Source of the DNA: Escherichia phage 92CQ
Strand: one strand, 5' to 3'
DNA length: 64,000 bases
Sequence record: PV682554.1
Positions 37,344-37,428 of the stretch are shown piece after piece. Positions within the stretch are counted from its first letter, which is position 1. Each line of letters opens with the position of its first letter. The notes under the pieces were generated by a model. That model had not been told where the DNA came from and did not search any database. It was given only the letters and a program-made list of their open reading frames with translations. The position numbers and the translations under genes were made by a program.

Positions 37344-37428
37344 GATGGATTGGCCTAGTGGTTGGGCGACGGACTGTTAATCCGTGAACGAAAGTTCTAG
37401 CAAGGTTCAAATCCTTGATCCATCGCCA
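37344..37428 (+). tRNA. type II tRNA with anticodon GTT (Asn codons) and Ser-like architecture
   Basis: Acceptor GATGGAT/ATCCATC, 3-bp D-stem GCC/GGC, perfect anticodon hairpin ACGGA-cTGTTaa-TCCGT, 15-nt variable hairpin GAAC-GAAA-GTTC, T-loop TTCAAAT, discriminator G, CCA encoded. Confidence 0.55.

Follow-up and report, generated by a model that had tools for sequence, protein, structure and literature searches.

A tRNA-Asn gene with a long variable arm in Escherichia phage 92CQ and its relatives in other phages

The tRNA-Asn gene and its fold

The window analysed here is a stretch of 64,000 nucleotides (nt) from Escherichia phage 92CQ (PV682554.1), a phi92-like (Justusliebigvirus) phage of E. 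coli. At 37344–37428 it carries, on the plus strand like the other tRNA genes, tRNA-like elements and promoter-like sites of the window described below, a tRNA-Asn(GUU) gene of 85 nt with an extra arm, G73 and an encoded CCA. ARAGORN calls a tRNA-Asn(gtt) at exactly these positions, and the Rfam tRNA model (RF00005) matches with a score of 56.5 bits (gathering score 29, E ~1e-10) over model positions 1–71, with a 12-nt hairpin placed as an insertion within the variable region. The minimum-free-energy fold of the 85-nt RNA alone is a cloverleaf with an extra hairpin (-29.5 kcal/mol, z = -2.57), and 3 of 200 shuffled sequences are as stable. These results confirm a sequence-only reading of the window, made without database searches, which had described a genuine tRNA with a long variable hairpin, the anticodon GUU, G73 and an encoded CCA.

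The acceptor stem pairs GAUGGAU (37344–37350) with AUCCAUC (37418–37424) over 7 base pairs (bp), beginning with G1-C72, A2-U71 and U3-A70. The anticodon arm ACGGA-CUGUUAA-UCCGU (37369–37385; 5 bp) holds the run U36-A-A-U39-C40-C41 and the anticodon GUU (37376–37378), which decodes AAC and AAU (AAY). It is followed by the variable-arm hairpin GAAC-GAAA-GUUC (37386–37397), in which 4 bp are capped by a GNRA tetraloop, and by an unpaired spacer, UAG (37398–37400), leading from the extra arm to the T stem; ARAGORN draws these two elements as ((((vvvv))))sss. The T-arm CAAGG-UUCAAAU-CCUUG (37401–37417; 5 bp) and G73 with the encoded CCA (together 37425–37428) complete the molecule. The sequence-only reading thus gave the length of the variable region correctly as 15 nt, although it took the whole for a hairpin where a 12-nt hairpin is joined to a 3-nt spacer.

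Its 3-bp D-stem is likewise what ARAGORN draws, with a 9-nt loop, but in the Rfam alignment U13-G22 extends the stem to four pairs. The D-arm (37353–37367) can then be read as the stem GCCU/GGGC (G10-C25, C11-G24, C12-G23, U13-G22), free of any non-canonical mark in that alignment, around the 7-nt loop AGUGGUU. In the neighbouring Ser and Tyr genes, unlike here, 13:22 is marked as a mismatch and the D-loops are longer.

Conservation of the extra arm

Covariation was followed in 19 distinct members of the family to which the gene belongs. Their five-helix structure is 98.5% paired, against 67% in shuffled sequences and 34–46% when the partners are slid, and compensatory changes occur in all five helices, the extra arm included. 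All 7 acceptor pairs covary and 13:22 is paired in 15 of the 19 members. The extra-arm helix itself is 98.7% paired, three of its four pairs changing on both sides, while the GAAA loop, the closing G-C pair and the middle A of the spacer are invariant. The last base of the spacer, position 48, covaries with position 15, the 15/48 combination being A:U, G:C or G:G in 11 members each and U:U in 8 (49 members).

A relative from a Klebsiella phage illustrates the pattern at short range. Its tRNA-Asn differs from the window gene at 6 positions, 5 of them within the variable region, where four changes form two fully compensated pairs (arm GAGA-GAAA-UCUC) and the fifth lies in the 3-nt spacer; the only change elsewhere is A27 to G. 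In this comparison the Asn gene is the best-kept tRNA of the array (92.9% against 68–87% for the others), and in comparison with phi92 it is 100% identical where the spacers are 95.2% identical. The compensatory changes and this degree of preservation show that the extra arm is under selection.

The window gene has a variable region of more than 10 nt that forms a stem-loop, as in class II tRNAs, and lacks the 4–5 nt variable loop of type I tRNAs, having instead a 15-nt region with a covarying hairpin. With the covariation of the extra arm, an alternative fold with a 4–5 nt loop, which the sequence-only reading had named as one result that would speak against it, is neither needed nor supported.

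Occurrence in phages

With the 85-nt gene as query, blastn finds 154 GenBank phage records, 133 of them with at least 80% query coverage; phi92 and over 50 further phage records hold the gene at 100% identity. Searching with the copy of Proteus phage Stubb gives 692 records, of which 526 match at least 80% of that copy. The GenBank phages belong to at least four lineages, among them Stephanstirmvirinae, Vequintavirinae, Demerecviridae and Straboviridae. Copies of 82–86 nt lie in the tRNA arrays of phAPEC8 (Phapecoctavirus), PVP-SE1 (Vequintavirinae), Proteus phage Stubb and Providencia phage PSTCR5 (both Demerecviridae), in those of the T5-like phages EPS7 and SP15 (83 nt in SP15), and in the T4-like Klebsiella phage KPV15. 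Over 1% of sequenced phage genomes carry a member of the family.

Two sequence patterns were used for wider searches. The first prescribes the anticodon arm and, of the hairpin, the 5' half alone, leaving the 3' half unconstrained; in IMG/VR all 31 matching contigs hold long-arm tRNA-Asn genes. The second leaves the 3' strand of the anticodon stem free, and its 38 matches in IMG/VR are again all long-arm tRNA-Asn genes, with unrelated acceptor and anticodon stems. Applied to one genome each for 185,579 bacterial and archaeal species, the first pattern gives 22 matches and no long-arm tRNA: apart from a single tRNA-Asn of the ordinary kind (74 nt), these are chance hits outside tRNAs. Of 5,426 complete E. 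coli genomes searched by blastn, none matches the window gene, and 5,425 hold the normal 76-nt host tRNA-Asn. As far as these sequence searches reach, the family appears to be confined to phages.

Long variable arms in bacteria are restricted to the tRNAs for Leu, Ser and Tyr, together with that for selenocysteine. The sequence-only reading was right to find the combination of such an arm with an Asn anticodon unusual. In an IMG/VR sample picked solely by a host-like Asn anticodon arm, 11 of 111 tRNA-Asn genes are at least 80 nt long, with several arm designs. A 349-kb jumbo-phage contig of IMG/VR (L189, 2343–3055) has tRNA-Asn(GUU) genes of 73, 83 and 94 nt together, so that short-arm and long-arm forms coexist in one genome.

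GenBank records annotate the family members simply as tRNA-Asn. Literature keyword searches found no discussion of a long-arm tRNA-Asn, an absence in those searches that is not proof of novelty, and an eLife paper on anticodon-loop mutations in phage tRNAs does not mention one. The gene itself is already annotated, and the phage-specific long-arm tRNA-Asn seems not to have been described as a family.

Asparagine identity

In E. coli, asparagine identity consists of G34, U35 and U36 together with G73, a set that is sufficient to convert a tRNA-Lys (PMC9976931). The window gene has both elements, GUU at 37376–37378 and G73 at 37425. The comparison covered 49 distinct long-arm members that had all been collected as GUU genes; 48 of them have G73, and 26 have U1-A72, the usual first pair of bacterial tRNA-Asn. 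The anticodon arm of the window gene is identical to that of E. coli tRNA-Asn at 16 of 17 positions. The tRNA-Asn of phage T5 carries the annotation that it cannot be turned into an amber suppressor, which is what anticodon-dependent charging would predict. Because asparagine identity in E. coli rests on these four bases and can be transplanted with them into tRNA-Lys, charging by asparaginyl-tRNA synthetase (AsnRS) would be expected, and the window tRNA is most likely an Asn acceptor.

The demand for such a tRNA would be high. The GC content of the window is 37.2%, and 53 of every 1000 codons are for Asn (AAY, 5.3%). Phe, Tyr, Met, Ile, Asn and Lys, which AT-rich genomes favour, are all served by the tRNA set of the phage, in which 37344–37428 is the sole Asn gene that ARAGORN finds. 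We consider it probable that the gene encodes a functional, Asn-charged decoder of AAY codons from a phage-specific long-arm lineage with a Tyr-like arm. The gene would be expressed within a multi-tRNA transcript, host AsnRS would charge the 85-nt tRNA with asparagine, and the charged tRNA would read AAC and AAU, used more by the AT-rich phage than by its host. In this lineage a hairpin of 3–4 bp with a GAAA tetraloop and a 3-nt spacer stands in place of the usual 5-nt variable loop, giving a tRNA-Tyr-like extra arm on a body with the anticodon arm, and probably the D-arm, of a type I tRNA.

Two points weigh against this assignment. Class II synthetases such as aspartyl-tRNA synthetase reach their tRNA from the variable-loop side, and the arm might hinder AsnRS. 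Moreover G1-C72, G73, C11-G24 and the long arm also belong to the E. coli Ser identity set, and some serylation is conceivable.

Relation to tRNA-Ser and tRNA-Tyr

The sequence-only reading had taken the molecule for a Ser-type body that seryl-tRNA synthetase (SerRS), which recognizes the long arm, could charge with serine. Class II tRNAs are told apart by the discriminator, 15-48, the D-loop and how many bases of the arm are paired and how many unpaired; in E. coli tRNA-Ser G2-C71 is absolutely conserved, and C-G at this position is an antideterminant for SerRS (PMC9976931). The window gene has G1-C72 as tRNA-Ser does, but A2-U71 in place of G2-C71. Of the 49 family members, 19 have G-C at 2:71 and 16 have the antideterminant C-G. 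The other Ser elements present, G73 and C11-G24, are both common outside tRNA-Ser too.

The geometry of the arm, expressed as unpaired 5' nt, bp, loop nt and unpaired 3' nt, was compared with the arms that ARAGORN draws in a pool of about 1,180 different tRNA sequences from phages. The window arm is 0, 4, 4, 3, and long-arm Asn genes generally have 3–4 bp followed by three or four unpaired 3' nt. Phage tRNA-Tyr arms are 0–1, 3–4, 4, 3, whereas phage tRNA-Ser arms are 1, 5–7, 4, 1 (68 Ser hairpin arms); the geometry is Tyr-like and not Ser-like. Acceptance of serine by E. coli tRNA-Tyr reportedly needed lengthening of its arm (work of Himeno et al. in 1990), a further point against serylation of a 4-bp arm. 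In the Rfam alignment the D-arm, with its 7-nt loop and 4-bp stem, lacks the 20a/20b insertions of tRNA-Ser.

Tyrosine identity is not indicated either: it comprises A73 and GUA, with U35 as the major element, and the window gene has G73 and U36, sharing with tRNA-Tyr G34, U35 and the shape of the arm. When the variable region and the anticodon arm are left out, the best matches of 36 family bodies outside the family spread over several isotypes, with 8 for Met, 7 for Asn, 5 each for Ser and Gln and none for Tyr. Because of this scatter over isotypes, the body appears neither Ser-type nor demonstrably Tyr-derived; none of the 36 best hits shows an affinity to tRNA-Tyr bodies, although arm geometry and gene adjacency would fit a Tyr origin. 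A nearest-neighbour comparison that included the anticodon arm favoured type I tRNA-Asn and was discounted, as the pool had been collected by an Asn anticodon-arm pattern.

The Ser-type body proposed by the sequence-only reading is therefore not borne out, the similarity to Ser not being preferential and the arm geometry, 2:71 and the D-arm as aligned by Rfam all being unlike Ser. The idea of charging by SerRS fares no better, since across the family the Ser determinants are not conserved and the Asn identity set is, so that AsnRS would be the expected partner. The tRNA does resemble the nearby tRNA-Ser(GCU) in its T-loop and discriminator, but weakly, with 61% over the 3' part and 0.62 over the body. 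An origin from this neighbour by a C35-to-U change was considered and rejected: an identity of ~0.62 is no better than that to Gln, Lys or Tyr, and neither the arm nor the D-arm is alike in the two genes.

The tRNA array around the gene

ARAGORN finds 16 tRNA genes on the plus strand between 36097 and 38873, and the 3-kb tRNA region is 97–99% identical to Escherichia phages Eryne and phi92 and about 50 more. Genes for Lys(UUU), Tyr, Asn and Thr(UGU) are adjacent. The tRNA-Lys(UUU) gene (37169–37244) has U36-A-A-C-U-C41 in its anticodon stem where the host has U36AAUC|A41. The tRNA-Tyr(GUA) gene (37250–37336) lies 7 nt upstream of the Asn gene and has an arm of 1 unpaired nt, 4 bp, a UUCG loop and 3 unpaired nt. 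The tRNA-Thr(UGU) gene (37508–37582) has U36-A-A-G39-C-A41, which differs from the host at position 39. Upstream of the run Ser-Ser-Ser-Lys-Tyr-Asn-Thr, a promoter-like site at 36472–36501 (TTGACA, an 18-nt spacer and TAGAGT with TG), which is a consensus match only, is likely to be the start of the transcript that includes the Asn gene.

The array holds several unusual elements. A tRNA-like gene at 36372–36454 reads CUUCUAA in its anticodon loop (UCU, Arg) and has CCA, 7 bp in the acceptor stem and a T-arm of normal build, with about 6 nt instead of a D-arm and a variable region of about 23 nt containing the hairpin CCGA-GUAA-UUGG. It scores 40 bits with the Rfam tRNA model and is not called by ARAGORN; its phAPEC8 counterpart is a normal tRNA-Arg(UCU). 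The best promoter-like site of the region (36332–36360, 11 of 12 matches) lies just upstream of it. The 90-nt tRNA-Ser(UGA) gene at 36517–36606 aligns best with the Rfam tRNA-Sec model (35.3 bits, under the gathering score of 47). It has a long acceptor stem and a long D-stem and may be an unusual Ser tRNA of the 8/4 or 9/3 type; the phi92 RefSeq record flags it as a pseudogene. The tRNA-Ser(GCU) gene is duplicated by a perfect 178-bp direct repeat (36619–36796 and 36924–37101, spacing 305 bp), of which phi92 has a single copy.

Directly 3' of the Asn gene, at 37434–37499, lies a degenerate tRNA-like remnant with no ARAGORN or Rfam call. It comprises an acceptor-like GCUUG/CAAGC, a T-arm-like GUAGG-UAUCAAAU-CCUAC and a palindromic hairpin CUAGAA-UUUU-CUAG. 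Further downstream, a 79-nt tRNA with the anticodon CAU and an 11-nt D-loop (38573–38651) has a counterpart in phAPEC8 annotated tRNA-Pseudo-CAT and is the least conserved tRNA in comparison with phi92 (96.2%).

A possible role for the extra arm

A role for the arm is suggested by analogy with phage tRNAs that counter host tRNA nucleases. The AriB nuclease of PARIS cuts the host tRNAs Lys(UUU), Thr(UGU) and Asn(GUU) at 40|41, within the motif U36AAUC|A41 (Lys, Thr) or U36AAUC|C41 (Asn), and the T5 versions of these three tRNAs together neutralize PARIS (PMC12409363). With U39 changed, tRNA-Lys is no longer cut, and T5 tRNA-Lys still escapes cutting when its site is restored (PMC12409363). Of the corresponding window tRNAs, Lys (U36AACUC) and Thr (U36AAGCA) are both altered at position 39, Lys also at 40–41, and a change of this type makes T5 tRNA-Lys resistant. 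The Asn gene keeps the host sequence U36AAUCC; therefore any resistance to AriB must come from elsewhere in the tRNA. The extra arm begins three bases 3' of the AriB cut position, on the same strand.

As the leading idea on its role, put forward tentatively, the arm may protect the phage tRNA from the nucleases with which host immunity cuts tRNAs. Sitting directly above the 3' strand of the anticodon stem, it would make nuclease cleavage inefficient, and a tRNA shielded in this manner could keep a host-identical anticodon arm for AsnRS and for the queuosine and t6A enzymes. A precedent for a variable arm in counter-defence comes from Retron-Eco7, which cuts host tRNA-Tyr in the variable loop: the tRNA-Tyr of phage SP15 loses its counter-defence when its longer variable arm is deleted or replaced by that of the host (PMC12673091). 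The long-arm tRNA-Asn of SP15 has been expressed in E. coli as a control, without comment (PMC11555353).

Three observations weigh against such a shield. The tRNA-Asn of Bas34 (Escherichia phage SelmaRatti), the one PARIS-tested phage examined that encodes its own, is a 77-nt type I gene, and published PARIS data are therefore silent on the long-arm type; no trial of a long-arm tRNA-Asn against a nuclease turned up in the literature. Some family members, such as that of PVP-SE1, combine the arm with a substituted position 39. Similar arms are also found on phage tRNAs for Glu, Trp, Thr, Cys, Pro and His, which are not known nuclease targets.

Extra arms on other isotypes are varied. In related phages, namely Klebsiella phage phi1_175008 (L199, 2286–2374) and those of the loci L019, L016 and L033, an 89-nt tRNA-Glu(UUC) carries GUAG-GAAA-CUAC and an 87-nt tRNA-Trp(CCA) carries GGG-GAAA-CCC, each followed by a spacer; extra arms are seen on phage Phe and Gly tRNAs as well. 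A tRNA-Ile(UAU) of 91–94 nt with a long variable arm occurs at seven IMG/VR loci (L062, L070, L080, L122, L157, L168, L176); ARAGORN draws a hairpin in six of them, and in five of the six the loop is the 7-nt CAGAUUA. PVP-SE1 contains an 86-nt gene (L003, 1348–1433) that is annotated tRNA-Lys, is given a 4-base anticodon (ggca) by ARAGORN and includes another stretch resembling an anticodon arm, CGACUUUUAAUCG, so that it could be a composite tRNA or an interrupted one.

Arms of one build on several isotypes fit a protective or structural module and tolerated insertions equally well. A reusable module of 3–4 bp with, usually, a GNRA loop and a 3-nt spacer might shield phage tRNAs in general from host immune tRNases, although we would rate this broader idea, too, as possible rather than probable.

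Alternative explanations

The strongest alternative keeps the asparagine tRNA and denies the arm a function: the hairpin would be harmless, either a tolerated insertion or the legacy of an ancestor resembling tRNA-Tyr. To turn Tyr identity into Asn, the changes A36 to U and A73 to G would be enough, the geometry is that of phage tRNA-Tyr, and a Tyr gene lies directly upstream both in the window and in phAPEC8. T5 and Bas34 get by with tRNA-Asn genes of 77–78 nt, genes of 73, 83 and 94 nt stand side by side on the jumbo-phage contig, and comparable arms are dispersed over other isotypes. Against neutrality stand a stem maintained by compensatory changes around an invariant loop, closing pair and spacer A, the retention of the arm in very divergent members whose acceptor stems are unrelated, and the absence of the family from the cellular genomes searched; the bodies also give a Tyr ancestor no best hit among the 36. 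We regard a functionless arm as a minority possibility, about as likely as the shield, that deserves to be taken seriously.

A decoy is considerably less likely. The tRNA would act, instead of or besides decoding, as an inhibitor that offers a host-identical anticodon arm to a nuclease or other factor and holds it in a non-productive complex. In its favour, the exact host AriB site U36AAUC|C41 is kept while the Lys and Thr neighbours are substituted, and competitive inhibition of AriB by overexpressed viral tRNAs has been raised as a possibility (PMC12409363). On the other hand, the family keeps each feature that charging and decoding require (G73, CCA, GUU, the T-loop and 15:48 co-variation), and the demand of the phage for AAY decoding is high.

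A mistranslator, in which SerRS reads the long arm and G73, ignores the anticodon and places serine at AAY, alone or alongside Asn charging, draws on the Ser-set bases listed above and on the anticodon-independence of Ser identity, anticodon-mutated tRNA-Ser being known to mistranslate (PMC9976931), but with the acceptor pair, arm, D-arm and body all arguing otherwise, and with proteome-wide Asn-to-Ser errors from the sole Asn gene of the phage hard to square with persistence in hundreds of lytic phages, we consider it very improbable. A second identity conferred by the arm, with partial Ser (or Tyr) charging besides Asn, so that a widespread group of lytic phages would make AAY ambiguous, would be compatible with G1-C72, G73, C11-G24 and the long arm but appears equally improbable.

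Comparison with known systems

If the preferred reading of an Asn-charged AAY decoder is correct, an isotype with two codons that is recognized by its anticodon carries a long arm, in a conserved and covarying family that includes phi92, PVP-SE1, EPS7, SP15 and KPV15. The family would show, in a clean natural case, whether a class I isotype in class II shape is accepted by AsnRS, EF-Tu and the ribosome, and it bears on how class II tRNAs are distinguished. It bears also on whether tRNA architecture, beyond point mutations of the anticodon stem, serves phages as a counter-measure to systems like PARIS and Retron-Eco7.

The E. coli tRNA-Asn genes asnT, asnU, asnV and asnW (76 nt, type I) have in common with the window gene GUU, G73, CCA and the stretch CGGA-CUGUUAA-UCCG, and also a 4-bp D-stem if the Rfam alignment is followed. 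In the window gene the 15-nt hairpin region replaces the loop AUGUC, the D-loop on that alignment is one base shorter and the first pair is G1-C72, whereas many family members have U1-A72 like canonical bacterial tRNA-Asn.

With the class II tRNAs for Ser, Leu and Tyr the window gene shares a base-paired arm between the anticodon and T arms, nearly with the geometry of the phage's own tRNA-Tyr, but its anticodon is that of a two-codon, anticodon-recognized amino acid. G73 excludes Tyr and Leu identity, each of which needs A73. It differs from tRNA-Ser in lacking G2-C71 and an arm of 5–7 bp with a single unpaired nt and, on the Rfam alignment, in having neither a D-stem of only 3 bp nor a long D-loop. 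Long-arm tRNAs with foreign anticodons are familiar from the tRNA-Ser(CAG) of Candida, the nev-tRNAs of nematodes and the allo-tRNAs, which are of Ser or Leu type and are charged according to their Ser or Leu identity. The long-arm Asn family, unlike these, keeps an identity set that matches its own anticodon and is without the acceptor and arm features of Ser.

The tRNA-Asn(GUU) of T5 is also phage-encoded, has G73 and CCA and stands in an array with Lys(UUU) and Thr(UGU), as in the window. The T5 gene, however, is a 78-nt type I gene whose anticodon stem is changed near the cut, whereas the window gene keeps the host stem and adds an arm. The tRNA-Tyr of SP15 likewise has a variable arm unlike that of its host, which is required for counter-defence (PMC12673091). 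Tyr is class II in the host too, and there only the length differs, whereas in the window gene the arm has been added to an isotype that normally has none.

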